A program made the translations under genes and the position numbers. The notes beneath the pieces are model-generated. The model searched no databases and was not told where the DNA came from. It saw only the letters and a program-made list of their open reading frames with translations. This document shows positions 36,200 to 55,464 of a stretch of DNA of 64,000 nucleotides, one piece after another; the first letter of the stretch is position 1, and every line of letters begins with the position of its first letter. This DNA is from an uncultured Anaerolineaceae bacterium (lineage in GTDB: Bacteria > Chloroflexota > Anaerolineae > Anaerolineales > E44-bin32), in assembly GCA_964575425.1 (NCBI GenBank), contig CAZNRD010000006.1, forward strand, positions 20,293 through 84,292. Direction: 5' to 3'.

Positions 36200-37507
36200 C
36201 TAGAGATAGTTCAGCGCCGCGGCCTGACGCTCCAGCTCTTCTCTGAAGTCTGGGTGTGCGATCTCGATCAAGGCGCGCGCACGCTGGCGAATCGTCTTCC
36301 CGAAGAGATCGACCACGCCGAACTCGGTGGCGATGTAGTGGACGTGGTTGCGCGAGGTCACCACCCCGGCCCCCGGCTTGAGCATCGGCACGATGCGGCT
36401 GACGCGGCTGCTGTCCTTGAGGACCGCGGTTGAGGGCAGCGCAATGATGGGCTTTCCGCCCTTGCTCCGCGCAGCGCCGTAGACGAAATCCACCTGCCCG
36501 CCGACCCCCGAGTACAGTCTGGGCCCGATGCTGTCGGCGCAGACCTGCCCTGTCAGATCGATTTCAATGGCCGAGTTGATGGAGACCATTTTGTCGTTCT
36601 GAGCAATCACGAAGGGATCGTTAACATACTCCGTTGGATGGAGTTCGATGATCGGGTTGTCGTCGACAAAATCGTAGAGGAGCTGCGTCCCCAGCATGAA
36701 GCCGGCGATGACCTTCCCCGGGTGCAGCGTCTTGCGTTCGTTCGTGATCACCCCCCGCTGAATCAGCATCATCACCCCGTCTGAGAACAGCTCTGTGTGG
36801 ACGCCCAGGTCGCGCTTGTCGCCCAGGAAATGCAGCACGCCGTCCGGGATAGCCCCAATGCCGAGCTGCAGGGTGGAGCCGTCCTCGATCAGGTCCGCCA
36901 CGTGCTTGCCGATGGCCTTGCTCAGCTCGTTGGGTTCCCCCATCGGCATCTCCGCCAATGGGTACTCCACAGGGACGGCGTAGTCGATCTTGGAGATGTG
37001 GATGAAGGAGTCGCCCAGGGTGCGAGGCATACGCTCGTTGATCTCGGCGACGACGGTCTTGGCCACCTGCGCCGGCGTCTTGGAGAGGCCGGCTTCGATG
37101 CCGAGGCTGCAGAAGCCATGCTCGTCGGGGGGAGCGACGTGGATGAGAGCGACATCTGGCTTGAGCGGCCCGTAGCGCATCAGCAGGGGCACCTGCGAGA
37201 GGAAGACCGGGGTGAAATCGACTCGTCCCTCGTGCACGGCCTGGCGCACATTGTCGCTGATGAACAGGGTGTTGATGTTCAGGTGCCCTGCCATTTCGGG
37301 AGCAGCGTGAGGCGCAGGGCCGATGGTGAGGACCTGGATGATTTCGACATCATGCAGTTCGTGTGCTCTGGCGACGAGCGCGCCCAGCAGCTGCTGGGGA
37401 ACCGAGCAGTTGCCGGTCAGGAACACCCGCTGGCCCGATTGGATCACCTTCACCGCTTCGTCGGCGGTCGTCACCTTGGCTTTACTGCCGGCTTGCCAGC
37501 TCATCAT
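36200..37507 (-). CDS. acetyl-CoA hydrolase/transferase family protein (4-hydroxybutyrate/succinyl-CoA:acetate CoA-transferase-like)
   Basis: 435 aa with VTTADEAVKVIQSGQRVFLTGNCSVPQ at the N-terminus and a later GGQVDF-type motif (SGVGGQVDFVYGA). Confidence 0.85.
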   Translation of the reverse strand: MMSWQAGSKAKVTTADEAVKVIQSGQRVFLTGNCSVPQQLLGALVARAHELHDVEIIQVLTIGPAPHAAPEMAGHLNINTLFISDNVRQAVHEGRVDFTPVFLSQVPLLMRYGPLKPDVALIHVAPPDEHGFCSLGIEAGLSKTPAQVAKTVVAEINERMPRTLGDSFIHISKIDYAVPVEYPLAEMPMGEPNELSKAIGKHVADLIEDGSTLQLGIGAIPDGVLHFLGDKRDLGVHTELFSDGVMMLIQRGVITNERKTLHPGKVIAGFMLGTQLLYDFVDDNPIIELHPTEYVNDPFVIAQNDKMVSINSAIEIDLTGQVCADSIGPRLYSGVGGQVDFVYGAARSKGGKPIIALPSTAVLKDSSRVSRIVPMLKPGAGVVTSRNHVHYIATEFGVVDLFGKTIRQRARALIEIAHPDFREELERQAAALNYL

Positions 37508-38598
37508 TCTTCACTCCCTACGGCGACCAAGCGCTTGAGATGCCGCATCTTCCCGCGGTAGGTGTTGACGCCCCTCTCCAGCGCAGGCAGGTTCTCGATG
37601 GCCTTGTCGATGCCCATGCGCGAGATGGCGGTCAGGTAGGGGAAGGCGGCGTTGAAGAGCGTGTACGACCCGGTCTGTCCAAGCACGCCCGGCATGTTGG
37701 GCACGCAGAAGTGGATCACACCTTCCTCGGTGTAGGTCGGGGACCCGTGGGAGGTGGGGCGCGACGTCTCGATGCAGCCGCCGGTGTCAATGGCCATGTC
37801 GATGATGACCGAGCGGCGCTTCATGCGCGACACCATGTCGCGCGTCACCACGATTGGCGACCGTTCGCCCGGCACGTAGACAGCGCCAATGAGGACGTCG
37901 GCATAGGAGCAGGCGCGCCGGATGTTGTAGGGCGTGGCGAGCATCGTCACCAGGTGGCAGGGCGTGCGAGACTGCAGGTCCTGGAGCCTGCGCAGGTCGA
38001 TGTCGAGGACGGTGACATGCGCGCCGAGCGCGGCGAAGGTCGTGGCGGCCGTGCCGCCGGCCATGCCGGCGCCGATGATCACCACCTCCGGTGCCGGAAC
38101 GCCAACCAGCCCGGCGAGCAGGATGCCCCGCCCGCCAAAGTCGTTCTGCATCAGGCGGGCAGCCACCTGGACGACCATGTGGCCGCCGAGCTGGCTGTGG
38201 GGGGCCAGCACCGGACGATAGCCATCGTCTTTTTCGATCTGCTCGTAGGCGATGGCTGTGAGCTTCTTCTCCTGAAAGACCGTCAGCTTGTCGTGGCGTG
38301 CGGCGGCCAGGTAGAGAAAGCCCATCACGGTCTGACCTGGGCGCATCATCTCCAGTTCCTCCTGCAGGGGCCGCGCGAACTTGAGCACCAGGTCCGCCCG
38401 CCGGTAGACTTCCTCCTCGTTGTAGGCAATTGTTGCCCCGGCCTGAGCGTAGTCGTCGTCGCCGAAGCCGGCGCCCACACCGGCGCCCCGCTCGACAAAG
38501 ACCGCGTGGTCATTCTCCTGGAAGAGGCCCACGCCGCTCGGGGGGAGGCCCACACGGTGTTCATGCGGTCTGCGTTCGCGGGGGATGCCGATGATCAT
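37504..38598 (-). CDS. ald: alanine dehydrogenase family protein
   Basis: MIIGIPRERRPHEHRVGL N-terminus and NAD fold VVIIGAGMAGGTAA. Overlaps the downstream gene by 4 nt. Confidence 0.8.
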   Translation of the reverse strand: MIIGIPRERRPHEHRVGLPPSGVGLFQENDHAVFVERGAGVGAGFGDDDYAQAGATIAYNEEEVYRRADLVLKFARPLQEELEMMRPGQTVMGFLYLAAARHDKLTVFQEKKLTAIAYEQIEKDDGYRPVLAPHSQLGGHMVVQVAARLMQNDFGGRGILLAGLVGVPAPEVVIIGAGMAGGTAATTFAALGAHVTVLDIDLRRLQDLQSRTPCHLVTMLATPYNIRRACSYADVLIGAVYVPGERSPIVVTRDMVSRMKRRSVIIDMAIDTGGCIETSRPTSHGSPTYTEEGVIHFCVPNMPGVLGQTGSYTLFNAAFPYLTAISRMGIDKAIENLPALERGVNTYRGKMRHLKRLVAVGSEE

Positions 38599-38637
38599 GG
38601 TATGTCTCCATTGATCTGGCGGATCTGGCGCGCCGGC

Positions 38638-39558
38638 TCAGCTGAGCAGGCTCACCAGGATCGCCTTCTGTGCGTGCAGACGGTTTTCGGCCTGATCGAA
38701 GATCGCGGAGTGCGGCCCGTCCATCACCTCATCGGTGATCTCCTGCCCACGGTGCGCGGGTAGGCAGTGCATCACGATGGCGGAGGGATCCGCTTCGCCC
38801 ACGAGGCCCGCGTTTACCTGATATGGCGGGAAGGCCTTCCTGCGCTGCTCCGCCTCCGCCTCCTGGCCCATGCTGGTCCAGGTGTCCGTGTAGATGATGT
38901 GGGCTCCGCGGACGGCCTCGCGGGGATCACGCAGCAGGCGGATGCTGATGCCGGTCTCTTCCGCAAGCCTGCGGCCCAGATCGAGAGCCTGGGCCGGCAG
39001 CTCGTAGCCTTCCGGCGAGGCGATGGTGAAATCCAGACCCAGCCTGGCGCAGGCAACCAGGAGCGACACGGCCACATTGTTCCCATCGCCAACAAACGTC
39101 AGCCGCAGGCCCTCCAGCCTGCCGAAGTGCTCGCGGATGGTGAGCATATCGGCCAGAGCCTGGCAGGGATGATTGAAGTCGCTCAGCCCGTTGATGACCG
39201 GCACCGAAGCATGGCGGGCCAGCTCGAGCACGTGCTCGTGGGCGAAGACGCGCGCCATGATCGCATCGACGTAGCGAGAAAGAACCCGGCTCACGTCGGC
39301 GATGGACTCTCGCTTGCCCAACCCGACCTCGTCTGGCGAGAGATAGAGGGCGTCGCCGCCCAGGTGGCGCATCGCCATGTCGAAGGAGACGCGGGTGCGC
39401 AGGCTTGGCTTCTGGAAGACCATGGCCAGCACCTTGCCGGCGAGCAGCGGAACGTTGCCCCCGGCGCGCCGCTCCTCCTTGAGGCGAACGGCCAGGTCGA
39501 GCATGGCCTCGAGTTCATGGCGACGAAAGTCGGCCAGACAAAGGAAATGTCGTGTCAC
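38638..39558 (-). CDS. argF: ornithine carbamoyltransferase
   Basis: [16 protein letters not shown] and HCLPAHRG motifs. GTG at 39558 is preceded by GGGGAG. Confidence 0.9.
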
Positions 39559-39775
39559 AGCAGGCTCCCCGTGGCAGGATTCACAGTTGATGGTGAGTGA
39601 GTATAGCACGGCGAGGCGGTCTTCTGGGTTTCGTCACCCGGCGCTTCGCTCTATAATCATGCGCGAGCCGGAGGGCGTGGTTCGGCTCTGACCGGGAGAA
39701 GTGCTCGCGGTGGGCGGACGTTCTGGGGCGATGTCGGGAACCGAGGCGTCGTTCTGAAGGCGTGGGGGCTGGGCG

Positions 39776-41362
39776 GTGAGCGGAGGGCGCATTCTTCTCC
39801 TGGACGACGACGGGGGGACGGTCGCGCTGTGCCGCCGGCTGCTGCCTCGGGCCGGTTACCAGGTGACGTCGGCAACAAGCGCCGAGGAGGCGCTGCGCCA
39901 CCTGCAGCGCGACGCCTTCGATCTCCTGCTTGTCGATGTCCGGATGAGCGGGGCCGATGGGTCCGCGTTGATGCGGCAGGTGCCCGCGCTACAGCCGGAC
40001 ATGGCAGTCGTAGTGATGGCGGGCGGGGATAGCCTGGGGATGGCCATCCGGGCGCTGGAAGAGGGCGCCAGCGGATTGGTCGTGAAGCCGTTCGAGTCGA
40101 ACCAGACGCTTCTGCGTCAGGTCTCCAGGGCGATCGAAGCCAACCGCGCACGCCGCGAGGCCGCCCGTAGCCGTGCGCTGCAACCGATCTTCGACCTGAC
40201 GGAGAGCCTGTTCGGGGAAACCGAGGAGACCAGTCTCGCGACGCGGGTGGCCCACGCGGTGCGAGCCCAGCTTCGCTGCGCTGCCGTGGGGGTCTATTGG
40301 CGGGACGATGCTGGCACCTCTCCCCGCTCGTTGGCACGCCTTGGCGAGGCACCGAAACCGGAAGAGGCCGCAGCGTCGGTCCTCATGCCCACGGGGGAGC
40401 CCTTGGTCGTCACCCGGCTTGGGCCCGGGGGCAATCCTGCTCCGGGCGTGGATCGATGGCTGGCGGCGCGTGGCCTGGGGTCGGGGCTAGTGGTGCCGGT
40501 GAGGCGCACGCAGGGAATCTGCATTCTCCTGGCCGTTCGTGAGGAGCGCCAGGCGGCGTTCAGCGAAAGCGAGGAAGAACTGCTGATCCTGCTGGCGCGT
40601 CAGGCGGCAGTGGCTCTGGAAAACGCGCGACTTTACGGCGCGCTGCGTGACCATGTGCGGGAGATCGAGCGATCGCAGCAGCGCCTGATCCAATCGGAGA
40701 AGCTGGCAGCCATCGGACGCCTGACCGCGTCGATCGCCCACGAGGTGAACAATCCGCTGCAGTCGCTCCGGAACTGTCTCGACCTGGCTGGCCGGGATGG
40801 GCTGGAAGAGGGTCAGCAGAGAGAGTATCTCAGGCTGGCGCAGAAGGAACTCGATCGCCTCAGCTGGATCATGCGGCAGATGCTGGATTTCTACCGCCCC
40901 GAGGCTGCTGCTCGCCAGTGGGTGGACCTCAATGAGCTGCTGCGGGAGGTGGTGATGCTTACGGCGGCTCAATGTGAGTCGAGGGGGGTCAAGCTTACCC
41001 TGGACCTGGCCAAGGACCTGCCTCGCATCCGTGCGGTTGGCTTCCAGCTCCAGCAGGTGGCGCTGAATCTGGTTCTGAACGCAATCGAGGCCATGCCGAA
41101 AGGCGGCAAGCTTTCGATTCGCACCCAGGCGCGTCGCGAGAGTGTGGTGGTGACCTTCCGCGACACCGGCGTTGGAGTCCCTCGACAGGACCTGCCCAGG
41201 ATCTTCGAGCCATTCTTCACCTCCAAGGCTCGCGGCACCGGGCTGGGGCTGGCGGTGAGCTACGGCATCGTGTCAGCCCACGGAGGCGTCATCGAGGTGG
41301 AGAGCGATGTGGGCGCGGGCAGCACCTTTCGCGTCAAACTTCCTATCGGGGAAGGGGAATAG
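39776..41362 (+). CDS. hybrid sensor histidine kinase (N-terminal REC - GAF - HisKA - HATPase)
   Basis: REC (ILLLDDD..LLLVDVRMSGADG), a central GAF-like region, H-box SIAHEVNNPL, and G-boxes DTGVG..GTGLGLAVS. Confidence 0.85.
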   Translation: MSGGRILLLDDDGGTVALCRRLLPRAGYQVTSATSAEEALRHLQRDAFDLLLVDVRMSGADGSALMRQVPALQPDMAVVVMAGGDSLGMAIRALEEGASGLVVKPFESNQTLLRQVSRAIEANRARREAARSRALQPIFDLTESLFGETEETSLATRVAHAVRAQLRCAAVGVYWRDDAGTSPRSLARLGEAPKPEEAAASVLMPTGEPLVVTRLGPGGNPAPGVDRWLAARGLGSGLVVPVRRTQGICILLAVREERQAAFSESEEELLILLARQAAVALENARLYGALRDHVREIERSQQRLIQSEKLAAIGRLTASIAHEVNNPLQSLRNCLDLAGRDGLEEGQQREYLRLAQKELDRLSWIMRQMLDFYRPEAAARQWVDLNELLREVVMLTAAQCESRGVKLTLDLAKDLPRIRAVGFQLQQVALNLVLNAIEAMPKGGKLSIRTQARRESVVVTFRDTGVGVPRQDLPRIFEPFFTSKARGTGLGLAVSYGIVSAHGGVIEVESDVGAGSTFRVKLPIGEGE

Positions 41363-42145
41363 GTGGCCGATCGGGTGCTGGTAGTCGATGATGACAACAT
41401 CGGCCGCCGCACGCTGGCCGAGATCCTGACGCTGGAGGGCTTTGAGGTCGTCGAGGCTGAAGGTGGGCGGGCGGCGATCGAGGCGCTGGGAGCAGCGGAC
41501 TTCGACGTCGTGCTGCTGGACCTGAAGATGCCCGATGTGGACGGGCTGGCCGTGCTCGAGGCCGCCTCCCATCTGGCGCCGGATGCGCAGGTCGTCGTGT
41601 TCACCGCGCACGGATCACTGGGGTCGGCGATCGAGGCAGTCCGCCACGGCGCTTTTGACTACCTGCTCAAGCCGCTGAGCAGCAGGGACATTCTGGCCTG
41701 CGTGCGCCGAGCCGTCGAGAAGCGCCGAGCGCAGGTTCGTCAGCAAAGGTTGCTGGCCCACCTGGAGCAGGCTGTGCGCGAGCTTCAGGCGGTGGAAGAC
41801 ACGAGCGATGCGCCCGTGGTGACGGTGGGGGCGGTGCGGCTCGACGTGTCGCGCCGCAGGCTGGAGAGGGGCGAGCAAAGCGTGGAACTCACGCCGGCGG
41901 AGCTGAGGCTGTTTCTGGCGCTCTATCGGCAGCGTGGGCGGGTGGTGGGGTTCCGCGACTTGGTGGACCAGGTGCAGGGTTATCAAGTCGAGACGTGGGA
42001 GGCTCCCGCGATGGTGCGGCCTGTGGTGAGCCGGCTGCGTGAGAAGCTGCGGCAGGTCGGCGGATCGGCAGAATGGATCGAGACCGTGCGCGGGAGCGGT
42101 TACCTGATGAGTGAAGGTGGCGGGGCTAGGCGGGCGGAGGGGTGA
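41363..42145 (+). CDS. OmpR-type response regulator (REC + winged-helix DNA-binding)
   Basis: VLVVDDD..VVLLDLKMPDVDG and a C-terminal LTPAELRLFLAL...VVSRLREKL...TVRGSGY. Confidence 0.85.
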   Translation: MADRVLVVDDDNIGRRTLAEILTLEGFEVVEAEGGRAAIEALGAADFDVVLLDLKMPDVDGLAVLEAASHLAPDAQVVVFTAHGSLGSAIEAVRHGAFDYLLKPLSSRDILACVRRAVEKRRAQVRQQRLLAHLEQAVRELQAVEDTSDAPVVTVGAVRLDVSRRRLERGEQSVELTPAELRLFLALYRQRGRVVGFRDLVDQVQGYQVETWEAPAMVRPVVSRLREKLRQVGGSAEWIETVRGSGYLMSEGGGARRAEG

Positions 42146-43052
42146 GCCAACGGAGCCAACCCCGGCCTCGGCGAGGCAGGCGGAGGCCGGCGTGGCGTTC
42201 GGTCAAGAGCAGGGCCAGGACGAGAAGACCAGCGCCGAGCCACTGTCCGGGGGCCAGAGCTTCGCGTAGCCATAGTCGGGAAAGGCCGACGGCCACCAGC
42301 AGCTCTGCAAGACCCAGGAGCGTGCTCTGCATACTGCCAGCGTGCTTGACGCCGGCGAACAGAAACAGCCTTGAGAGGAAGGTGACGACGGTCAGACATG
42401 CCAGCGGCAAGGCTTCAGAGGCGGTGAGGGTGGCCAGTGGCGGCGAGAACAAGGCGTATGCCGGGATGACGATGGCTGCCATGGCGGCCAGAGTGTAGAA
42501 GGCGACGGTCGGCGGCGGGGCTTCGTACAGGATGCGCTCGTTGATGGGGATGTGGAGCGCGTACAACAGGCTGGCCAGGAGCAGAAAGAGTGCCGCGCGC
42601 AGGTCCACATCACTGGGGGAAGCACGGGTGAGCAGAATCACGGCGGGCACGCTCAAGAGCAGGCGCAGCACCGTGAGTGGGGTCTGCCGCTGGCCGTCCA
42701 GGTACAGTATCAGGGCAACAAACACCGGGTACAGCGAGAACAAGAGCTGAGCCAGGCCGGCGTCCAGGCGGGCCAGCCCTGAGTAGAAGAAAAGAGACCC
42801 CAGGCCGTTGAGCCCGCCTGCCAGCAGGCAGCCGACGAGGCCGAGGGGGTAGATGTAGAGATCCCGCCTGCGGAACAGGGCCAGCACGAGCAAGAGCAGC
42901 ACTGCTGACCCCGCCGTGCGGATGGCGACGACGGCCAGCGGCGGCACACCGGCCTCCAGGGCTTGCTTGCCGAAGACCGGTGTGGTTCCCATCAGCAGGG
43001 CGGAGGCCAGGGCGAAGCGAAGTCCGCGCGTGTGAGCCGGAGAGGAACTCAT
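42126..43052 (-). CDS. EamA/DMT-superfamily transporter
   Basis: About 10 predicted TM helices in two repeats. It lies 14 nt downstream of the ThrC-REC gene, and its 3' end overlaps the convergent regulator by 20 nt. Confidence 0.8.
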   Translation of the reverse strand: MSSSPAHTRGLRFALASALLMGTTPVFGKQALEAGVPPLAVVAIRTAGSAVLLLLVLALFRRRDLYIYPLGLVGCLLAGGLNGLGSLFFYSGLARLDAGLAQLLFSLYPVFVALILYLDGQRQTPLTVLRLLLSVPAVILLTRASPSDVDLRAALFLLLASLLYALHIPINERILYEAPPPTVAFYTLAAMAAIVIPAYALFSPPLATLTASEALPLACLTVVTFLSRLFLFAGVKHAGSMQSTLLGLAELLVAVGLSRLWLREALAPGQWLGAGLLVLALLLTERHAGLRLPRRGRGWLRWLTPPPA

Positions 43053-43066
43053 CCAGCGCGTCCTCT

Positions 43067-44749
43067 CTAGCCCAGGACGCGGCCGATTTCCTGCAGCAGA
43101 TCTTCGTCGAGGTACTCGCCCTTGGTGATGAGGCGGGCGATCTGCCCTTCCAGAAGCTTCTTCTCCGCCGGCGTCAGGTCCATGGCGGTGACGACGATCA
43201 CGGGAATGTTGGCAGTTTCTGGCTGCTGGCGCAGGTGGTCGAGCACCGCGAAGCCATCCATCTCGGGCATCATCAGGTCCAGCAAGATCAGGTGGGGCGG
43301 GGTGCGGCGCGCCTCGGCCAGGGCCTCGTCGCCCGAGGCGGCTTCCTGGATGGCGAAATGGCCGTGGGCCTGCAGGATGCGTTGGAGCAGGCGTCGCGTT
43401 CCGGCGTCGTCGTCGATGATCAGGATGCGCTGAACGTGTTCCTGATCGAGCTCCGCCAGGGCTGCCAGCAGCCCCTCGCGGGGCGTCTCGCGCGTCAGGG
43501 CCGTCGGCACGGCGACGTCCTGCGCCCAGCCTTCGCCGAGCAGGCTCTCCTCCACCGGCAAGGTGTGTCCTGAGCAGTTCACGACCACGATCTGGTCAGG
43601 CCGTATCTGGCCGCCGCGGGCAAGCTTGATCAGCCCGGCGAAGGCGACAGCTGCGGCCGGTTCGAGCGAAAGGCCTTCGGTCTTGGCCACGATGTGCATG
43701 GCGCGGAACGCGTCCTCGTCGCTGACGCTCTCGAAGGTGCCGCCTGGCCCTTCCAGCATCCGCTCACGGAGGAGGGTGTAGGTTCGTCCCGGATCGCCGG
43801 TGCTCAGGGTGGCGATGTGGGTGCGGGGCGACTCCACTGGGGTGACGCTGGCGGCACCGCGATGCCAGGCGTCGGCCATGGGGGCGCAGCCAGAGGTTTG
43901 AATGCCGGCAACGGCGGGGACGTTCGGGACGAGCTCGAGGGCAACGAGTTCCTCGAAGCCTTTCAGCACGCCCATCGGGCCGATCCCGCCGCTTACGGAC
44001 TGGATGTACCAGTGGGGGGCGCGCCAGGGGGTGACCGGGCGGGTGCCGCGCGCTTCGGGGGCGGCCAACCCCCCGAGCTGCTCCGCAATCTCATAGGCGA
44101 TGGTCTTCATGGACTCGACGGCGGCGATGCTGCGTGTGCCTCGGTCGAGGTACAGGCCGCGCTGCTGGGCGAACTCTGCCGCCAGCCGCTTCGCTTGGTC
44201 GTACGTCCCGGTGACCTTGATCACCTGTGTGCCGTACAGCGCGACTTCGCGCATCTTCTCTGCCGGAACCAGGCTTGTGAGGAAAGCCCACAGGCGGATG
44301 CCGGCGCGCGCACAGTAGGCCGCATACGACATGGCGACGTTTCCCGTCGAGGCGACGACGGCTTCCCTCAGGCCAGCCTCCTTCAAGACGGCCACGGTGA
44401 GGGCGGCCTGTCGGTCCTTGAAAGAGGCCGTCGGGCTCTGACGTTCGTCCTTCACGAAGAGGTGTGGCAGGCCGAGGATCGCTCCCAGGTTGCGGGCAGG
44501 GAAGAGCGGCGTGCCACCCTCGCCCATGGGAAGCATTGGCGGGACGGAGCGAACCGGGAGTAGCTCCAAGTAGCGCCACAGGTCGAACGCACGGCGGGCC
44601 ACAAGGGTCGGAAGGGTGCGCATGAGCGGGGCCAGGTCGTAGCGGGCCTCGCGCCAGTGGCTGCCGCAGCGCGGGCATTCAAGGGAGGTCGGATGATACG
44701 GCTCCCGGTGTCCGCAGTCGAGACATTCCACGTCACAGTGCAGGGCCAT
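43067..44749 (-). CDS. threonine-synthase-like PLP enzyme fused to a C-terminal response-regulator receiver domain
   Basis: aa 1-~415: zinc ribbon CLDCG..CPRCG, PLP lysine motif SFKDR (K111), and glycine loop SVSGGIG. aa 441-560: a complete REC (DD446/447, D491 in LILLDLMMPEMDG, T521, K543). Confidence 0.85.
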   Translation of the reverse strand: MALHCDVECLDCGHREPYHPTSLECPRCGSHWREARYDLAPLMRTLPTLVARRAFDLWRYLELLPVRSVPPMLPMGEGGTPLFPARNLGAILGLPHLFVKDERQSPTASFKDRQAALTVAVLKEAGLREAVVASTGNVAMSYAAYCARAGIRLWAFLTSLVPAEKMREVALYGTQVIKVTGTYDQAKRLAAEFAQQRGLYLDRGTRSIAAVESMKTIAYEIAEQLGGLAAPEARGTRPVTPWRAPHWYIQSVSGGIGPMGVLKGFEELVALELVPNVPAVAGIQTSGCAPMADAWHRGAASVTPVESPRTHIATLSTGDPGRTYTLLRERMLEGPGGTFESVSDEDAFRAMHIVAKTEGLSLEPAAAVAFAGLIKLARGGQIRPDQIVVVNCSGHTLPVEESLLGEGWAQDVAVPTALTRETPREGLLAALAELDQEHVQRILIIDDDAGTRRLLQRILQAHGHFAIQEAASGDEALAEARRTPPHLILLDLMMPEMDGFAVLDHLRQQPETANIPVIVVTAMDLTPAEKKLLEGQIARLITKGEYLDEDLLQEIGRVLG

Positions 44750-44782: not shown

Positions 44783-47110
44783 TCATGGAGACACGGTGGG
44801 GTGCCGAAGGAGGCGTGAGAGCCAGCCCTGCACCTCGGCCATCATATCGGCCGGGGCCAGGCCGGATTGCTCCAGCAGGACAGTCCAGCGGTGAAACAGG
44901 TCGGCCTGCTGTTCTGGGGTGAAGGCCAGGGGTGCCAGCAGCACCAGCGGCGCTTTCGCAGTGCGCTCGTCGTGCTTGATTGCCTCAAGAGCGTCCAGGC
45001 CGTTCGTAGTGGGAGTGGTCAGGTCGATCAGAACGACGTCCGGGGGCTGCGCCTGGGCAACCTGCAGCGCCTCCTGGCCATCGGCGGCGAACACGACGCG
45101 GATCTCGGCACGATGCTCGAGCATCGCCCGCAGCTCCTGGTGCGCCTGTGGTTGATCGGAGATGGCCAGCACGAGGGGTCGTGGATGCTCGCGCGAGCAC
45201 AGGCGGAGCATGGCCGCCACCAGGTCATCCTGACGCACAGGCGGAGTGAGCCACTCCACCGCGCCGAAGCAGGCGCCTTGCTCGCGGTCGCGCCGCAGGC
45301 TGGCCAGGACCACCGGGGTCGAGCGCGTGTCGGGGGCGGCCTTCAGGCTCGCCATCAGTTGCCACGCGACGCTGTTCGGCAGAAGCGGATTCAGCACAAC
45401 CGCTCCCGGCGGACTGCCGCGCACAGTGGGGATGGCCTCCTGGGGCCTAACCGCGGAGTGCAGCTGGTAATGCGGATCAGACCAATGCTGGCGGTACCAA
45501 TCGAGAACCCCGCGATCGTCGTCGATGATGACGACCAGGGAGGAGGGGGGCGCCTCGGTTGCGGCCCCTTGCGGAGGCTCGACCGGCAGCGAGAAGGAGA
45601 ACGTGCTGCCCTCGCCGAGCTTGCTGTCCACCCAGATGCGGCCCCCGTGCAGTTCGACAAGGTGGCGGCAGATGGAGAGGCCGAGCCCGGTGCCTCCGGT
45701 CTTGCGTGTGGGAGAGGCATCGACCTGGGAGAAAGGCTCGAAGAGCTTCGCCTGGTGCTCGGCAGCGATGCCCGGACCGGTGTCGAACACGGAGACCACG
45801 ATTTCCCGGCGACCGTTGGCCTGATCCAGGCGCGCCGTCGCCCCCACCTGTCCCCGTTCGGTGAACTTCGTGGCATTGGAGATCAGGTTCAGGAGCACCT
45901 GCCGGACCCGGATGCTGTCGGCCTGGATGGGCGGCAGGTGTTCGGGGAGATCGAGGACAAGCTCAATGGGCTTGTCCTTCACCAGCCCCGCGGCCGTCGA
46001 CATGACGCTGCGAATGATCTCGAGCAGATCCACTTCGCTGAAGGCCAGCTCCATCTTGCCGGCCTCGATGCGCGACAGGTCGAGGATATCGTTGATCAGC
46101 CCCAAGAGATGCTGGCCCGAGTTGTAGATGGCGGTGAGGTCCTGTGCCTGGGTCTCATTGATGGGGCCGTCGATTCCCTTGAGGATGACGCGCGAGAACC
46201 CGATGATGGAGTTGAGCGGTGTGCGAAGCTCGTGGCTCATGTTGGCCAGGAACTGGGACTTGAGGCGATCCGCCTCGCGCATCTCCTCCAGGGCCTGGCG
46301 GGTGAGCTGGTAGCTACGGGCGTCGGTCAGAGCCTGGGCCAGCTGCTGGGCGGCCGCCTCCGCGAGGAGGCGATCGTCCTCGCTCCAGCCCCGGCCATCT
46401 TCGCGCGGCCCCAGCTCCAGCACGCCAAGCAGGCGCTCCCGGTCGAGGACGGGGATGACCAGGCGGGAGTCGCTGGGTGTGGACACTATGTCGCTGTCGA
46501 GCGGCTGGACCGACCGGGCGTCGGCGCGATAGCCGGCGAGGTGCCGTGCCGGCAGGGTCGGTGCGGCCTCGGCGGTGATCTGCGGAGCGGGTTCCGGTTG
46601 GGCCGCTCTGGGGGCCGAAGCCAGCGGGGCGAATGCTGGCGGCTCAGCAACTGCAGGCAATTTGGCAGGGGTCGGAGGTGCGGCCGCGTGCTTGCGGCGC
46701 TCGAGAACTCGGATGACGCCACGGTATCCTGCTCTCAAGCCAGATCCGTCGAGGCGCGGGACCGCGCCCAGCCAGAGTGAGACCTGGTCGCCGTCCTCGG
46801 TGGACGCATCGAGGATTAGGCCGCGAATCTCGTCGCCGCTTTCGAGGGCGCGGGCAAGGGCTGCTGACGAGCCGGCCGATAATCCGAGGAAGTCGAGCCG
46901 CTTGCCGATGAGGTCGGCCGAAGGCATTCCGAAAGCGGCTTCGATGTCGCGGCTGCACCAGGTGACGTTGCCCTGGAGGTCAGTCTCCCACATCCAGGCG
47001 CGTGGGGATTCCCGAGGGCGCGCCGCCCTGGGTGGGCTGGAGGTGGGGGACTGGGATGGGGCGCCCTGGGAGTTGCCATGCGGTCTGTTTGAGGCAGGGT
47101 TCTGGTTCAT
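44783..47110 (-). CDS. hybrid histidine kinase: PAS - short GAF - HisKA - HATPase - pseudo-receiver - receiver
   Basis: H-box MSHELRTPLN (H293) and G-boxes DTGPGI, GGTGLGLSI. REC1 has Asn at the acceptor position (VVLNPLLP). REC2 has VVLIDLTTP (D696). Confidence 0.9.
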   Translation of the reverse strand: MNQNPASNRPHGNSQGAPSQSPTSSPPRAARPRESPRAWMWETDLQGNVTWCSRDIEAAFGMPSADLIGKRLDFLGLSAGSSAALARALESGDEIRGLILDASTEDGDQVSLWLGAVPRLDGSGLRAGYRGVIRVLERRKHAAAPPTPAKLPAVAEPPAFAPLASAPRAAQPEPAPQITAEAAPTLPARHLAGYRADARSVQPLDSDIVSTPSDSRLVIPVLDRERLLGVLELGPREDGRGWSEDDRLLAEAAAQQLAQALTDARSYQLTRQALEEMREADRLKSQFLANMSHELRTPLNSIIGFSRVILKGIDGPINETQAQDLTAIYNSGQHLLGLINDILDLSRIEAGKMELAFSEVDLLEIIRSVMSTAAGLVKDKPIELVLDLPEHLPPIQADSIRVRQVLLNLISNATKFTERGQVGATARLDQANGRREIVVSVFDTGPGIAAEHQAKLFEPFSQVDASPTRKTGGTGLGLSICRHLVELHGGRIWVDSKLGEGSTFSFSLPVEPPQGAATEAPPSSLVVIIDDDRGVLDWYRQHWSDPHYQLHSAVRPQEAIPTVRGSPPGAVVLNPLLPNSVAWQLMASLKAAPDTRSTPVVLASLRRDREQGACFGAVEWLTPPVRQDDLVAAMLRLCSREHPRPLVLAISDQPQAHQELRAMLEHRAEIRVVFAADGQEALQVAQAQPPDVVLIDLTTPTTNGLDALEAIKHDERTAKAPLVLLAPLAFTPEQQADLFHRWTVLLEQSGLAPADMMAEVQGWLSRLLRHPTVSP

Positions 47111-47168: not shown

Positions 47169-50100
47169 CTATTGCGGGCCTCCAGACGGGATGTTCGTCC
47201 CGGATTTTGAGCCATCGCCGGACGTCTCGAGCGGACCTCGGTGGAAGTCAGCGGCGAGGCGGATGACGGCTTCCTGCGCGCCGAGGGCGCGGCGCATCTC
47301 TGTCACCGCGGTGCGCAGGATGGCATCCACGTCGCGGGTGGAGCGGATCTTGCCCGTGATTTCCATCAGCGCTTCTTCACGCTGGGCCCGGCGCAGGGCG
47401 TCGTGGTACAGGCGAGCGTTCTGGATGGCCACACCGAGCTGGTCGCTTAGAACCTCCAGGACGGCGATCTCGTCCTCGGTGAAGGTGTGGGGACGCGTGT
47501 GCTGGACGTCGAGCGCCCCGATGACGCGGTCACCCGAGCGGAGGGGGAGCCCCAGCTCGGTTTGAGTGTCGGGGAGGTGTGGATTGGGCTTGAAGTATGG
47601 ATCCTGGCTGGCATCGTGGGCCACATAGGCCTGGCCGGTCTGAGTGACCTGGCCGACGATTGACTGCGAGCCGACAGCGAGCCGATGTCCGCTGGCCTTC
47701 ATCTCACGCCCGGCATCGCCAGTGGCCTCGCGCAGGACGGCGTACTCGCCCTTGTCGTCCACAAGGAAGATAGAGACATGGTGGAAGCCAAAGCGGTCGC
47801 GCACGAGGCTGATGGCGCGCGCCAGCAGCGTGTCGACGTCCAGCAGCGCTGTGGCGTCGCGTGCGATCTCGGCGGCGATGCGCAGCTGCGCGGCGCGGCG
47901 GTGGATCTCCTCCAGCAGCCGCGCCTGCTCGAGGGCGTTTGCCACCTCATCCGCCACCGCATCCAGCACAAGCCTGTCGTCTTCGCTCCAATCGCGAATG
48001 GGCTGCGGAGCGTCAATCCCCAGCCTGCCGATCACTTCGCCGCGCAGCGAGATCGCGGTCTCGAGGGGCATGGAGGGCGGCAGGTCCTCTCGCCTGCGCC
48101 CCTTCTGCAGGTACTCGAAGTACGTCCTGGCCGCGCCGGCGCGTCGGGCGGCGAAGAGCTGAGTCCAGGATTCCTCAGCTCGCTGCCGGTACAGGGCGTC
48201 GAGGTGTTGCAGGCTCTGTTGCATCTCGTCGAAGAGTCTGGCATTCTCGAGCGCGACGGCCACCAGGCCGGCGAGCATTTCCATCATTTCGATGTCGTCG
48301 TCGCTGAGGCCGCCTGCCAGCAGGCGTTCGACTGACAGGGTGCCGATGGCCTGGCCCCGGCTCAGGAGGGGAACAGCAAGGACTGCGAGAGGATCTCCCG
48401 GGGCAAGGCGCGCCCCCAGGATAGAGTCAGCGGAGAGATCGGGGATCTGGACGCGGCTCTTGAGGGCGGCGGCCCGGCCGAGCACACCCTGTCCAAGTGG
48501 CAGGGCCTGGCCCACGGGAATGGGCCGGATGCCGGGAGCCCGAGCGGCGCCGCGGATGATCAGTTCCTTGCCTTCGACGAGGGCGATGCTCACCCGGTCG
48601 TACCCGAAGTCCTGCTGGATGGCGGAGGCAGCCTGGATGATCACCTGACCCAGCCCAAGCTCCTCGCTGAGCTGGCGGGACAGTTCGATGATGCGGCGGC
48701 GCTGGCCGGCGCGGCGCGTCTCGACCCCGATCAGGCTGACGTTCTCGATGGCCACTGCCAGCTGATCGGCCATCGTCTGTAGGACGACGACATCGGCCTC
48801 TTCGAAGGCGTTGGCCTCGCGGCTCTGGACGTCGAGGGCGCCGATGATGCGGTTTCCGATGCGCAGCGGCAGGGCCATTTCCGAGCGCGTCTCCGGCAGG
48901 TCGGGGTTGGCAAAGTGGACGGCGTCAGCCCCCACGTCCAGCGCGATGCGCGGCTTGCCTGTGCCGGTGACGTAGCCCACGATGCCCATCTTGCCGACGC
49001 CGAGGCGGTGCCCGCGCTGGAGCATCCGCTGCCCGCCTTCGGAAGAAGCGGCGCGCAGGACAGCCCATTCGCCCGTTTCGTCAATCAGAAAGATGCCGGC
49101 GTGGTAGAAGTCGAAGCGCTCGGAGATCAGATGGACAGTCTCGTTCAGGAGGCGGTTGATGTCGCGTGTGGCGGCGGCGTCGCGGGCGACCTCGGCCGCG
49201 GTCCGGATCTGCTTCGTTCTCTCGTCCACGCGCGCTTCCAGTGAGCGGTAGAGGCTGGCCAGGTCCTCGGCCATGCGGTTGAAGGTGGCCGACAATCGCC
49301 CGACCTCGTCCGGTCGGTCGACCGGCACGCGGCGATCCCAGTCTCCCTGGGCGAAGCGCTCGGCGAACGCCGCCAGCGTTCCAAGCGGCCGGATGGAGCG
49401 GGAGGTGGCCCAGGGCACGATGAGGAACACCAGCACCACCGTGCCGAGCATCAGCGCGATGGTGAAGGTGGTGAGGGTGTTCAGGCCGCCGAAGGCCGCG
49501 CTCTGCGGCACTTCGGCCACGATCGCGGCGCCGATCTCCGGGACCCACTGGTACACCGAGAGCATGGCGTTGCCAACAGGGTCGACGAACTCGGCCTCGC
49601 CTGCCGTGCTGGTGGCCAGGGCGGCGAAGACCGGGTGATACTCGGCCTGCATCGTTCGCACATCGAGGAAGATCGCCTGGAAGCTCAGCAGCGTCTGCGG
49701 CGGCAGCGCCAGGTAGAGGGCGCTGCCGGGCATCTGCGAGCGCCGGTTTCCGCTGACCAGGTTGTACACCTCCTCACTGTTGGAGACGCCCACCAGCACG
49801 GCTCCGGGCATGGGCGTCACGGAGACGAGCGAGACAGGTGAGATCCCGCTGAACAGCCGGGTGTGGGTCAAGGCGGTGCCGTTGAAGGGGAGCTGGCTGA
49901 TGCCGCTCACGTGCCGGCCCTGCCACTGCGCGGGGTGCGAGGCCAGGATCAAGCCGTCGGAGAGCCGCACCACCATGATCCCGGTGAACCAGTCTCGCGG
50001 GGTATTGGCGTTGCTGGAGCGGAGGAGCTCCTGGACACGGGCGAGAGCCTCCTCCGACTCCGGCCCTCCCGGCTCCAGCAAGCGCGCGATGTCTTCCGCG

Positions 50101-50372
50101 AGCGAAGGATCGCGGGCGAGGTTGCGCAGAAGCGGCTCGCGGGCGCGCCGCCACTCCAGGAAGGCGGTAGTCTGGGCCTCGGCGCCGCGCTCCATCTGAC
50201 TGATGACCTGCTGCCGGATCAGCTCACGGGCACGGAAGTAGGCAGCCGTTCCCAGAGCGACGATGGGCAGGATGATGAGCGGCAGCAGTGTCAGCGTCAG
50301 CCGCGCCCCCAGGCTGGCACGCGGACCGCGCGGGATTCTGATCCGACCCTGAGAGGCGGAATCGGTGCTCAT
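47169..50372 (-). CDS. membrane sensor: TM - extracytoplasmic domain - TM - HAMP - multiple GAF domains, no recognisable output domain
   Basis: 1067 aa. HAMP region is IRPLGTLAAFAERFAQGDWDRRVPVDRPDEVGRLSATFNRMAEDL. There are at least four GAF repeats with the recurring block HRL.VG..SIVG.V...G......D.......NP.LP.T.SE...PL..G.R.IGALDVQ. ATGA overlap with the upstream gene. Confidence 0.85.
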   Translation of the reverse strand: MSTDSASQGRIRIPRGPRASLGARLTLTLLPLIILPIVALGTAAYFRARELIRQQVISQMERGAEAQTTAFLEWRRAREPLLRNLARDPSLAEDIARLLEPGGPESEEALARVQELLRSSNANTPRDWFTGIMVVRLSDGLILASHPAQWQGRHVSGISQLPFNGTALTHTRLFSGISPVSLVSVTPMPGAVLVGVSNSEEVYNLVSGNRRSQMPGSALYLALPPQTLLSFQAIFLDVRTMQAEYHPVFAALATSTAGEAEFVDPVGNAMLSVYQWVPEIGAAIVAEVPQSAAFGGLNTLTTFTIALMLGTVVLVFLIVPWATSRSIRPLGTLAAFAERFAQGDWDRRVPVDRPDEVGRLSATFNRMAEDLASLYRSLEARVDERTKQIRTAAEVARDAAATRDINRLLNETVHLISERFDFYHAGIFLIDETGEWAVLRAASSEGGQRMLQRGHRLGVGKMGIVGYVTGTGKPRIALDVGADAVHFANPDLPETRSEMALPLRIGNRIIGALDVQSREANAFEEADVVVLQTMADQLAVAIENVSLIGVETRRAGQRRRIIELSRQLSEELGLGQVIIQAASAIQQDFGYDRVSIALVEGKELIIRGAARAPGIRPIPVGQALPLGQGVLGRAAALKSRVQIPDLSADSILGARLAPGDPLAVLAVPLLSRGQAIGTLSVERLLAGGLSDDDIEMMEMLAGLVAVALENARLFDEMQQSLQHLDALYRQRAEESWTQLFAARRAGAARTYFEYLQKGRRREDLPPSMPLETAISLRGEVIGRLGIDAPQPIRDWSEDDRLVLDAVADEVANALEQARLLEEIHRRAAQLRIAAEIARDATALLDVDTLLARAISLVRDRFGFHHVSIFLVDDKGEYAVLREATGDAGREMKASGHRLAVGSQSIVGQVTQTGQAYVAHDASQDPYFKPNPHLPDTQTELGLPLRSGDRVIGALDVQHTRPHTFTEDEIAVLEVLSDQLGVAIQNARLYHDALRRAQREEALMEITGKIRSTRDVDAILRTAVTEMRRALGAQEAVIRLAADFHRGPLETSGDGSKSGTNIPSGGPQ

Positions 50373-52537
50373 CGCAGGTCCTCCAGCTCGCTGGTTGCGG
50401 CAGGCGCCTCCAGGCTCTCCGCCAGGCGAGCGTAGGCGCGAGCCGCGCCCAGCCCCTCGCTCAGCTCGCGCGCCGCGGTCATCAGGATCGTGTCGATGTC
50501 GGCCGCGCGTCTCACGCGCGTCGTGATCTCATGGATGAGCCGCTGGCGGCGCGCCGTCCGGCGAACCTCGTCCAGCAGCCGGGCGTTCTCAAGCGCCGTC
50601 CCCACCTGGCTTGCAATCGTGGCAAGCAGGGCAGCGTCGTCATCGGTGAAGCGGCGCTCCTGCTCCCGGTCCTGCACGGCAAGCACGCCAAGGTTGGTCT
50701 CACCCACAAGCATGGGGACGCCCAGCCAGGAGGCGATGCCTTTCTCCGGAAGGGTCAACTCGAGTGCCGCGGCCTGGGCCTCGACGTCCTCCGTCAGGAG
50801 CAGAGGCTGGCGTGTGCGGATCACGTGCGCGATGGGGTCGTTCGCCAGGTCGATTTCCCCTCCTTCGCGTATCTCGCCCCCCTTGGCGGTGTAGGGGAAC
50901 TGCACGCGTTGATGCTCCTCATCGAACAGAGCGATGATGAGGTCGGCCTCGCCCAGGACCTGGCGGACCTGGTTGTGGAGCACGCGGTAGAGGGCGCCGA
51001 CGTTGAGCAGCTGGGAGGCGGCCTGGCTCACCCGGTTGACGACTTCCAACTCAGCCAGGCGGCGCTGCTCTTCCGCATACTGGCGCGCCGCCTCCAGAGC
51101 CTGGCCTGCCTGGCTGGCGACGGCCTGCAGGACGGCGACGTCTTCCTCATCGAATGGGGGTTCGGCATCGGCCTTGCGCGCGGCGATGGTAGCCACGACC
51201 TCGTCTCGAACGAAGACCGGGACAGCCACCTCATGGCCGCCCTCGGCCAGCACCGGCTGCCCCAGTTCGGTCGCTTCTCTGGACACGTCCGGGCGCGGTG
51301 GAAGGCCATCCGGGGCCGCGCCACGCAGGTGCAATTCAGCCGCCTCAGCGGAACGAGCCAGGCGCTGCCACGATGCCGCCAGGCGGACATCCCCTGCGGC
51401 TTCGAGGCCGGCGCTGGCCTCGCGAAGCAGCCGGATATACTCCAGCGCGACGGCCAGCTCGGAGGCGATGGCCTCCAGGGCGCTGACATCCTCGTCGGCG
51501 AAAACCTCGGGCTGAGTGCTTTGGACATCCAACGCCCCGAGCAGGCGACCGCCCGCAAGGATCGGAACAGCGGCCTCGGACCGGGTTCCAGGCAGCAGCG
51601 GATTCTTGAAGTAGAACGGGTCCTTCTCGACGTCCTGGGCGACTCGGGGCTGCTGATTGGCGGTCACCCAGCCGACGATCGAGGCGCTGCCCACTGCCAG
51701 CCGATGCTTGCGGGCCAAGAGCTGTCGTCCCGCCTCGCCCGTGCTTGCGCTGAGTTCCGCCCACAGCCCCGTGGCGTCGAGCAGGAAGATCGAGGCATGA
51801 TGGAAATCGAAACGCTGGCGCATCGACTCGACGGTGCGAGTCATCAGATCGTTCGCATCGGGGGTTTGAGTCGCCAGTCTGGCGACCTCTGCCGCCGCCT
51901 CAATCCGGGCCCGCTGCCTGGCTTGCGTCTCGCCGCCGCCGCCGGGGCGCGCCTCGAGGGCCCGCTTCTCATCCTGCAGGTCGACCAGTCGCTTCTGCTG
52001 CTCTTCCAGTGCCCTGTTGTTCGCGCGCACGATCCCCGCGACGGTGAGCGTCAGGGCAGTCGAGATCAACACCAGGGCGACCACCGGGGTGATCCAGCGG
52101 GCGAGTTCGGCTGCCGGAGTCCACGCGGCGACTGCTGCGAGACCCACCATGACAGCCGCGAGGGAAGCCAGGCCGCCCGGAAGTCCAAACAGCATGGCGC
52201 CCATGATCGGCCCAATCACAACCCACCCGACGCTTGGCCCGCCCAAGCCCTGGGTGACCAGCCCCGCCAGCCCCAAGGCCAACGTGAGCCCGAGCAGGCT
52301 TCCCGCGCGCAGGCCGTAGGGCAATCGCGGCACGAAAGTGGCGACCATCAACCACACGACAGCCGCGCCCACCATGCCAATGACGAGCCACTGGCGACTC
52401 TGCACCGCGATTTGGAGTGGGCCCGCGTGGGTCCAAAGACCGACAAGCGTGACGGCGAGGATCAGGCCGCTGAGCAGGCGCGGACGGAGCAGGGGCGATT
52501 GAGGAAGCAAAGGTTCGAAGGGGACTCGCATCGTCAT
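50369..52537 (-). CDS. polytopic membrane protein (about 6 TM) - coiled coil - three GAF domains, no recognisable output domain
   Basis: 722 aa with a hydrophobic N-terminal 170 aa, the coiled coil NRALEEQQKRLVDLQDEKRALE, and then GAF repeats of the same type as the neighbouring genes. Confidence 0.8.
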   Translation of the reverse strand: MTMRVPFEPLLPQSPLLRPRLLSGLILAVTLVGLWTHAGPLQIAVQSRQWLVIGMVGAAVVWLMVATFVPRLPYGLRAGSLLGLTLALGLAGLVTQGLGGPSVGWVVIGPIMGAMLFGLPGGLASLAAVMVGLAAVAAWTPAAELARWITPVVALVLISTALTLTVAGIVRANNRALEEQQKRLVDLQDEKRALEARPGGGGETQARQRARIEAAAEVARLATQTPDANDLMTRTVESMRQRFDFHHASIFLLDATGLWAELSASTGEAGRQLLARKHRLAVGSASIVGWVTANQQPRVAQDVEKDPFYFKNPLLPGTRSEAAVPILAGGRLLGALDVQSTQPEVFADEDVSALEAIASELAVALEYIRLLREASAGLEAAGDVRLAASWQRLARSAEAAELHLRGAAPDGLPPRPDVSREATELGQPVLAEGGHEVAVPVFVRDEVVATIAARKADAEPPFDEEDVAVLQAVASQAGQALEAARQYAEEQRRLAELEVVNRVSQAASQLLNVGALYRVLHNQVRQVLGEADLIIALFDEEHQRVQFPYTAKGGEIREGGEIDLANDPIAHVIRTRQPLLLTEDVEAQAAALELTLPEKGIASWLGVPMLVGETNLGVLAVQDREQERRFTDDDAALLATIASQVGTALENARLLDEVRRTARRQRLIHEITTRVRRAADIDTILMTAARELSEGLGAARAYARLAESLEAPAATSELEDLR

Positions 52538-52565
52538 GCCAATCCTTCTGACAGGTGCCGGTGCA

Positions 52566-54437: not shown

Positions 54438-54439
54438 GG

Positions 54440-54847
54440 TCACTCCATCTCCCACACGGGCTCGCCCGTCAACGCGCGGCGAATCTGGTCGGGGAATCGA
54501 TCGGGGTCCAGAGGCTTGCCCAGAAAGCCGTTGAAGCCGGAGGCGCGGGCTCGCGCCATCTGGTCATCGCTGACGTAGGCCGTCACGGCCACCACAGGGA
54601 TGTCCTTGAGGCTGGGCGACTCGCGGATGCGGCGCAGCGCATCGTAGCCATCCTCGTAGGGCAGGCGGATGTCCATCAGGATCAGGTCGAGGCGAGGCAG
54701 CGCGCCGGCGTACTCCACGACCTGGTAGCCAGAGGTCTTCCACTCGCAGCGGATCCCCATATGGGCGAGCATGCGCGCCATAAGGACAAAGTTGGCGACA
54801 TTGTCTTCGACGATCAGGATCGTGGCGTCTTTCACCGAGGCCCTCAC
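54440..54847 (-). CDS. single-domain CheY-like response regulator
   Basis: ILIVEDN..LILMDIRLPYEDG..AVTAY..KP. Confidence 0.9.
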   Translation of the reverse strand: MRASVKDATILIVEDNVANFVLMARMLAHMGIRCEWKTSGYQVVEYAGALPRLDLILMDIRLPYEDGYDALRRIRESPSLKDIPVVAVTAYVSDDQMARARASGFNGFLGKPLDPDRFPDQIRRALTGEPVWEME

Positions 54848-55445: not shown

Positions 55446-55464
55446 CGTATCCCGGTTGCCCGAG

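Follow-up and report, generated by a model that had tools for sequence, protein, structure and literature searches.

A threonine synthase-like pyridoxal-phosphate enzyme fused to a receiver domain and encoded beside histidine kinases in the class Anaerolineae: a candidate enzyme-output response regulator

Background

A 64,000-nucleotide stretch of DNA from an uncultured Anaerolineaceae bacterium (assembly GCA_964575425.1, contig CAZNRD010000006.1, positions 20,293 to 84,292 of the forward strand; hereafter the window, numbered from its first nucleotide) carries, at 43067-44749 on the minus strand, a gene for a 560-residue protein in which an enzyme domain of the threonine synthase (ThrC) type, dependent on pyridoxal 5'-phosphate (PLP), is followed by a C-terminal receiver domain. 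The gene is the seventh of eight minus-strand genes separated by gaps of -16 to +58 nucleotides, a string that is apparently an operon and that also encodes CheY-like receivers, membrane sensors, a hybrid histidine kinase and a transporter. The response regulators known to us act, with few exceptions, on DNA, second messengers or the chemotaxis machinery; a receiver wired to a PLP enzyme of amino-acid metabolism would, if the reading developed below is true, mean that a two-component system controls a metabolic reaction post-translationally. The filamentous Anaerolineae are abundant, poorly understood and common in sludge, sediments and mats. The domain organisation of the fused protein, its distribution, its gene neighbourhood and its relationship to the threonine synthases were analysed, and the claims of an initial annotation of the window are taken up where the results bear on them.

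The fused gene and its two domains

The fused gene is a single open reading frame of 560 codons with an ATG start and no internal stops, and the plus-strand reading of 43067-44749, coordinates for which the initial annotation named no strand, is interrupted by stops. Pfam searches recognise both halves of the translated protein above their cut-offs. The fold-type II PLP domain (residues 75-392; 43574-44527, minus strand) matches PALP with 218 bits against a cut-off of 35, and the receiver domain (residues 441-560; 43070-43429, minus strand) matches Response_reg (PF00072) over residues 442-545 with 77.7 bits against a gathering threshold of 30.2. A C4 zinc ribbon of the form C9-x2-C12 ... C25-x2-C28 lies at the N-terminus (44666-44725, minus strand), recognised by the conservation of its cysteines and by a weak match to the zinc-ribbon model DUF7129 at residues 8-33. 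The residues named in the initial annotation were all located by script in the places given there, namely C9, C12, C25 and C28, the SFKDR motif at 109-113 with the Schiff-base lysine K111 (codon 44417-44419, minus strand), SVSGGIG at 251 and, in the receiver, D446, D447, D491, T521 and K543, of which D491 (codon 43277-43279, minus strand) is the predicted phospho-acceptor. The proposal of a genuine single chain, with a ThrC-type PLP domain and a receiver whose phospho-acceptor pocket is intact, is thus borne out by the Pfam domains and the residues found, and the unbroken frame uniting the two domains agrees with the full-length homologues. A linker between the domains does exist, as had been proposed; its supposed length of about 25 residues does not stand, the segment comprising about 30 poorly predicted residues (395-425) or, measured between domain boundaries, about 42-49.

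Conservation was assessed in an alignment of 148 fused homologues. The cofactor machinery, comprising K111, S134-T-G-N137, E363-P-A365, G394 and D344, is invariant, as is the Gly-rich loop of the PLP domain. The four zinc-ribbon cysteines are kept in 100% of the sequences and are also found in the unfused zinc-ribbon ThrC relatives. The receiver pocket is similarly maintained, with D447, D491 and K543 at 100%, D446 at 97% and T521 at 90%. The strong conservation of the PLP motifs and of the receiver pocket indicates purifying selection on each half as a working part. Between them, the inter-domain segment defined from structure prediction and conservation (residues 399-440; 43430-43555, minus strand) holds the nearly invariant W408 and the nearly invariant helix G426-L-L-A-A-L431.

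The AlphaFold2 model of the fused protein has a mean predicted local distance difference test score (pLDDT) of 80 and a predicted TM-score of 0.70; confidence is high in the PLP domain and across most of the core of the receiver. In Foldseek, the nearest structures to the PLP domain are the threonine synthases 6cgq, 1uin, 2zsj and 2d1f of Bacillus subtilis, Thermus, Aquifex and Mycobacterium tuberculosis (target-normalised TM-score about 0.83), followed by CapA2/cysteate synthase (9k3c) and plant threonine synthase. A sequence search of the PDB likewise ranks threonine synthases closest to the PLP domain (best E = 1e-39), and PleD is among the best PDB sequence matches of the receiver.

Distribution and origin of the fusion

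Homologues were collected from the assemblies of NCBI, JGI, ENA and Logan. PALP and Response_reg occur together in 119 of the 120 best homologues, which are 60-100% identical to the window protein and about 550-590 residues long, and also in about 108 of the 120 members of a second, more distant set. The public names of the best 120 are 'threonine synthase' or 'pyridoxal-phosphate dependent enzyme'. Full-length fused copies were found in at least 34 species-representative genomes, all of the Chloroflexota class Anaerolineae, and the matches listed include Anaerolineales, Bellilinea, Anaerolinea, Caldilinea aerophila, Thermoflexales and Villigracilis. A distant fused subgroup of about 548 residues (Aggregatilineales and other Anaerolineae) was met by searching with an unfused relative. 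With hundreds of database proteins carrying the same two-domain architecture, the rarity implied by the initial annotation has to be given up; the architecture is common and ancient in the class Anaerolineae. The same unbroken architecture in independent assemblies also speaks for a frame in which no stop or frameshift parts the domains, as had been claimed.

A neighbour-joining tree was built from the PLP domains with 40 bootstrap replicates. In 40 of 40 replicates, all fused proteins form one clade together with a tiny unfused branch, that of P0125, and the support is again 40 of 40 when some additional unfused relatives are taken in. This clade stands well apart from the PRK08197-type ThrC of the Anaerolineales and from the crystallised ThrCs. 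A single clade of fused proteins indicates that the fusion arose once and is old; it has a single evolutionary origin and is conserved across the class Anaerolineae.

The unfused P0125 is a relative with 51% identity, and its group is nested within the fused Chloroflexota clade, so that this branch looks, from its sequences, like a secondary loss of the receiver. One member of the group, P0281, is an unfused protein of 422 residues (L081:5239-6507, GCA_943367755.1) that is 51% identical to the window PLP domain and is encoded next to a phycobilisome linker gene, a cyanobacterial context. Its occurrence in such a context, despite its nesting in a fused Chloroflexota clade, points to a horizontal transfer in which the receiver was lost.

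Variants with two receivers, about 710-720 residues long, were also observed (P0124, P0127 and the copy at 3443-5608 of L020, a Caldilinea aerophila metagenome-assembled genome (MAG)); their second receiver appears to be the CheY-like gene found downstream in one group of loci (group B, below), fused on. The fused gene is split over several reading frames at two loci, L032:6246-8127 and L034:10790-12408, the former being a second fused copy of the MAG to which L014 belongs. The two broken copies come from long-read assemblies and may be due to indel errors or may be pseudogenes.

The wider superfamily of zinc-ribbon ThrC-like proteins is large, with 631 representatives (at 50% identity) at E < 1e-30 and 3966 at E < 1e-10, and its substrate-pocket residues are highly variable. 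It includes other long architectures of about 610-720 residues, such as P0169, P0182, P0190 and P0195 (among P0157-P0270), and many of its members are probably not threonine synthases.

Gene neighbourhood

The fused gene lies 33 nucleotides downstream of a hybrid histidine kinase gene (44783-47110, minus strand) whose product has the Pfam domain order PAS-GAF-HisKA-HATPase-REC-REC, REC denoting a receiver, and which is the likely phosphodonor of the fused receiver. The linkage is conserved: open reading frames were clustered across 35 related loci, with three more added afterwards, and a same-strand kinase core is present in the gene adjoining the fused gene in 36 of 37 related loci as well as in the window, the exception being a frame-broken second copy. 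The linkage survives altered gene order, the kinase being downstream in L083 and L084. A cognate-looking kinase so regularly encoded in the adjoining gene lends weight to the initial proposal of an enzyme-output response regulator.

Three groups of loci can be distinguished by their gene order. Group A (56-60% identity, the window included) has sensors, a ParA-like ATPase, a hybrid kinase, the fused gene and an EamA transporter gene, followed beyond EamA by a divergently transcribed OmpR-type regulator and a kinase of the REC-GAF type. Group B (46-49% identity) has sensors, a non-hybrid kinase, the fused gene and one or two CheY-like genes. Group C consists of a giant kinase, the fused gene and EamA (L082), or of the fused gene, a REC-kinase and EamA (L084). 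EamA lies directly 3' of the fused gene in all 13 group-A loci with sequence at that position and is also present in L033, L082 and L084. Homologous sensors (cluster 1, the output-less GAF type) stand ahead of the kinase in 27 loci.

The first gene of the operon in the window encodes a CheY-like single-domain receiver of 127 residues (54860-55243, minus strand; identified from its reading frame and by tblastn), and the second another of 135 residues (54440-54847, minus strand), matched by tblastn to a Pfam-verified single-receiver protein of L018. They are followed on the same strand by three membrane sensors identified with Pfam, which carry HAMP and GAF (52566-54455), MASE11 and three GAF domains (50369-52537, overlapping the next gene by 4 nucleotides) and HAMP and three GAF domains (47169-50372). 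All three, at 47169-54455, are devoid of a recognised kinase, cyclase or similar output domain, and these output-less sensors may partner the PAS-GAF hybrid kinase. The last gene, 14 nucleotides downstream of the fused gene, encodes a transporter of the EamA/DMT family (42126-43052, minus strand; Pfam EamA, 102 bits). Among NCBIfam models its product comes nearest to TIGR00950 (carboxylate/amino acid/amine transporter) without reaching the cut-off, and no curated model for a named exporter was matched.

In 14 group-A loci, for example at L003:6196-7002, the gene for a ParA/MinD-like P-loop ATPase (Pfam AAA_31/CbiA) separates the sensors from the hybrid kinase; as judged by tblastn, this ATPase is missing from the window. 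A conserved protein of 293 residues with no Pfam match follows the CheY genes in group B (L018:12650-13531, cluster 29; also L017, L022 and L029). The downstream genes of group B gave no clue to a substrate, being unrelated genes for LacI, sugar ABC transport, glycosidases and CoaBC.

Upstream of the operon, a perfect sigma-70 promoter at 55577-55549 (minus strand) was considered as the operon promoter and rejected, as Rfam and ARAGORN show that it drives a tRNA-Gly(CCC) instead. The tRNA gene (55464-55536, minus strand) has this TTGACA-17-TATAAT promoter, with 12 of 12 consensus positions, before it and a GC-rich hairpin after it, and the position of the unit just upstream of the signalling operon makes read-through into the operon possible. 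No riboswitch or other known RNA element was found by Rfam in or upstream of the operon. On the opposite side, a second two-component pair on the plus strand (39776-42145) converges on the EamA gene; it comprises a REC-GAF-HisKA-HATPase kinase (39776-41362) and an OmpR-type regulator adjoining the kinase stop (41363-42145). The pair (clusters 13 and 11) is kept at the same position in 9-10 group-A loci and, being conserved beside EamA, may regulate transcription of the operon. The genes beyond it (37504-39609), for an ornithine carbamoyltransferase (38638-39609, minus strand) and a protein of the alanine-dehydrogenase/PNT family (37504-38598, minus strand), look like ordinary amino-acid metabolism and have no evident link with the operon.

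Relationship to threonine synthases

The group-B string ends, after the CheY gene or genes, with an unfused zinc-ribbon ThrC. This canonical protein scores 588 bits on the threonine synthase model NF006050 (cut-off 303) and 200 on TIGR00260, shares only about 30% identity with the PLP domain of the fused proteins, and is 82-91% identical across its 120 best matches, all of them threonine synthase where named. Both genes stand in one string in L016, L021, L023 and L026 and in L085, L086 and L088; in the last three, which are longer contigs reached from the canonical ThrC side, the gap between CheY and thrC is about 8-80 nucleotides. At least seven genomes of one subgroup thus carry a fused and a canonical ThrC. 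The group-B fused protein is physically tied to threonine synthesis, and the presence of a canonical ThrC in the same string indicates that it is, for this subgroup at least, a paralogue and not the housekeeping enzyme. Co-residence was seen only as neighbours; on large contigs, no match was found between the hit lists for fused and canonical ThrC. Neither hom nor thrB is present within 10 kb on either side in any of about 40 loci.

The window protein falls below every curated ThrC cut-off, with 135.6 bits against 167.1 on TIGR00260 and 218.6 bits against 303 on NF006050, on which other fused proteins reach 248-255 bits. It does not reach the cut-offs of related activities either: it scores 101.4 bits against 324.9 on the cysteate synthase model TIGR03844, and 49-59 bits against cut-offs of 320-421 on the NCBIfam models for the threonine/serine dehydratases IlvA and TdcB. 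The analogy with cysteate synthase drawn in the initial annotation accordingly finds no backing in the scores (101 bits, cut-off 325).

Differences are also evident in the active site. Five residues of the Thermus enzyme, T88, N154, S155, R160 and N188, presumably the substrate-phosphate pocket, are aligned with identical residues in the ThrCs of Aquifex and M. tuberculosis. Their counterparts in the fused family are V138 (91%), G204 (99%), a variable position, a position variable among S, A and G, and G254 (100%); with V138, G204, T205, A210 and G254, the window protein has all five replaced. Residues invariant and new in the fused clade are R103, Q114, E129, W247-Y248-x-Q250 and T-L-S-T-G-D-P-G321, and R103 is essentially exclusive to it. 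An arginine is present either at 103 or at the R160-equivalent in 26 of 27 clade representatives, a phylogenetically non-independent sample, and members of the wider ThrC-like superfamily often have arginine at neither. This pattern weakly hints at a relocated anion-binding arginine, with R103 taking the part of the R160-equivalent. Given the missed cut-offs and a distal substrate pocket unlike that of the crystallised ThrCs, the earlier warning that the enzyme might make something other than threonine seems reasonable.

Proposed mechanism and alternative explanations

Taken as a whole package, the fused protein may be a response regulator with a ThrC-family metabolic PLP enzyme as its output, a specialised paralogue that is controlled by a kinase and coupled to a transporter; we rate this reading at slightly better than even. 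The PAS-GAF hybrid kinase, possibly together with the HAMP/MASE11/GAF membrane proteins, would sense signals and set the phosphorylation state of D491, the phosphoryl group being donated by the kinase encoded at 44783-47110. Phosphorylation would then turn the attached enzyme on or off. By analogy, this could occur either through relief of an inhibitory contact between receiver and enzyme, as in CheB, or through receiver-driven dimerisation, as in PleD; ThrC-type enzymes are active as dimers. The enzyme would be a specialised paralogue and not the housekeeping threonine synthase, and its PLP-dependent reaction would probably still be an elimination or a replacement, on an amino acid whose leaving group is anionic. 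The foremost candidate substrate is O-phosphohomoserine, and the clade-specific Arg103 would stand in for the lost phosphate-binding arginine. In the lineage of the window, the co-transcribed EamA transporter would carry the product or an amino acid related to it.

A bolder version of this mechanism is a signal-gated amino-acid valve, in which the enzyme with phosphorylated D491 diverts O-phosphohomoserine or a similar phospho-amino acid and EamA exports the product as a metabolite for cross-feeding or intercellular signalling. We put it forward tentatively, as a possibility well short of even; if true, it would represent direct two-component control of a PLP enzyme of the primary-metabolism type without a transcription step. 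More generally, a fusion conserved across the class, adjacent to its kinase and usually accompanied by a transporter could explain how Anaerolineae link the sensing of their environment with the flux or exchange of amino acids.

Several observations weigh against the kinase-controlled, transporter-coupled paralogue. EamA is absent from all group-B loci. In the AlphaFold2 model, pLDDT is below 50 in residues 395-425 and in the last 40 residues of the receiver and the inter-domain geometry is unreliable, so that the switching routes proposed above are guesses drawn from analogy. The seven genomes that hold both genes are closely related and not independent, and thus amount to one lineage-level observation, and no second ThrC of the window's own genome is encoded within the 64 kb. 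The distant subgroup of about 548 residues scores 170-181 bits on TIGR00260, barely over its cut-off of 167.1, and is named threonine synthase by NCBI, so that the fused family may still possess ordinary threonine-synthase activity. The pocket, too, is to be read with care: the residue roles in the Thermus enzyme are presumed ones, and the co-resident zinc-ribbon type, itself canonical, retains only the arginine, which makes pocket divergence weak evidence on the substrate.

One alternative is that the PLP domain has acquired a new chemistry and that the operon is a module for signal-gated synthesis and export, for instance by gamma- or beta-replacement on O-phosphohomoserine or O-phosphoserine with another nucleophile, by phospho-lyase action or by threonine deamination. 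The clade-specific invariants around the active-site motifs listed above, the EamA gene conserved downstream and the redundancy of a second identical activity co-transcribed with a true ThrC would all fit such an enzyme, as would the functional plasticity of a family in which cysteate synthase is structurally related (9k3c) and a cyanobacterial ThrC is reported to make threonine and also to deaminate it (PMC12172450). However, no co-conserved gene for an alternative nucleophile or precursor was found, the cysteate synthase model is missed by a wide margin, and EamA proteins are generic, the one in the window matching no named exporter. We regard a new chemistry as doubtful.

The fused protein might instead be an ordinary threonine synthase with an allosteric receiver, through which two-component signalling tunes bulk threonine synthesis. 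A regulatory appendage of this kind would resemble the N-terminal extension of plant threonine synthase, which responds to S-adenosylmethionine. This explanation draws on the nearest solved structures and sequences, which are threonine synthases, on the names given by JGI and, for one subgroup, by NCBI, together with the passing of TIGR00260 by that subgroup, on the intact cofactor motifs and on the lack of a further thrC in the 64 kb window. It is countered by the bona fide ThrC, conserved to a far higher degree, that at least seven related genomes encode in the same string, by the scores of the window protein below every curated ThrC cut-off, by the absence of hom and thrB within 10 kb in about 40 loci and by the remodelled distal pocket, and appears unlikely. 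The differing NCBI names follow from one monophyletic family straddling the TIGR00260 cut-off, and with pipelines splitting the family into 'threonine synthase' and 'PLP-dependent enzyme', metabolic reconstructions may mis-assign thrC.

It is more improbable still that the ThrC-like domain serves mainly as a ligand sensor or regulatory partner, for example in phosphorylation-dependent heterodimers with a true ThrC or in amino-acid feedback to the kinase, with the receiver as a phosphate sink or partner switch. The C-terminal position of the receiver, atypical for classical response regulators, the other receivers of the operon (those of the two CheY-like genes and the pair within the kinase) and the true thrC that immediately follows the module in one lineage could be accommodated in this way. 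The Schiff-base lysine and the PLP motifs are, however, kept in 100% of the 148 sequences, which is unexpected for a pseudoenzyme, and groups A and C encode no ThrC partner nearby.

An artefact of assembly, frameshift or gene calling that joins neighbouring genes can be practically dismissed as the source of the fusion: the gene is indeed split across frames in L032 and L034, but both copies belong to long-read MAGs, in which indel errors are frequent, and hundreds of independent assemblies (NCBI, JGI, ENA and Logan) show the same unbroken architecture of about 550-590 residues.

Comparison with known systems

No fusion of a ThrC or other PLP enzyme with a receiver was found described in the full-text literature searched, which leaves most subscription journals outside, and a mention in a domain census is possible; within the searchable literature, no characterised member was met. 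The fusion is genuine and apparently uncharacterised, yet common within one class.

The solved ThrCs, 1UIM/1V7C (Thermus), 2ZSJ (Aquifex), 2D1F (M. tuberculosis) and 6CGQ (B. subtilis), all EC 4.2.3.1, share with the fused protein the fold-type II PLP domain, the SFKDR lysine motif, the S-T-G-N loop, E-P-A and a T/S-G near the C-terminus. Unlike them, the fused protein has a zinc ribbon, an insert of about 17 residues at 227-241 and a C-terminal receiver, and its family has the five pocket positions replaced, the new invariant R103, Q114 and W247-Y-x-Q, and no linkage to hom or thrB. The bona fide ThrC of Anaerolineales, the zinc-ribbon type of NF006050 (PRK08197), has the same layout of zinc ribbon and PALP; it differs in its score on that model (588 bits, against 218-255 for the fused proteins), in motifs of its own (SFKAR, TAGNA, GGGTG and APE) and in being without a receiver.

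Cysteate synthase (TIGR03844; CapA2, 9K3C) is likewise a ThrC-derived PLP enzyme with an N-terminus of the zinc-ribbon type and can be structurally aligned with the fused protein, but the identity in that alignment is 21%, the score is 101 bits against 325, and the fused gene has no coenzyme-M or sulfonolipid context. A 'moonlighting' non-canonical ThrC of Microcystis aeruginosa, an N-terminally extended paralogue beside a second ThrC, is reported to make threonine from O-phosphohomoserine and also to deaminate threonine (PMC12172450, 2025). Unlike the fused protein it carries no receiver, and by analogy it shows that such ThrC paralogues can be functionally plastic. A link between it and the fused clade by way of P0125 was looked for and not found: the nearest relatives of P0125 are the fused Chloroflexota proteins, with no Microcystis among its top matches.

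The closest parallels in design are CheB (a methylesterase), PleD and WspR (diguanylate cyclases) and RpfG (HD-GYP), in which a canonical receiver is also fused to a catalytic domain and encoded alongside a kinase. In those proteins the receiver is N-terminal, whereas in the fused protein it is C-terminal and the output is a PLP enzyme of amino-acid metabolism in place of one that serves signalling or second messengers. The fused protein would thus extend the known principle of the enzyme-output response regulator and break none.

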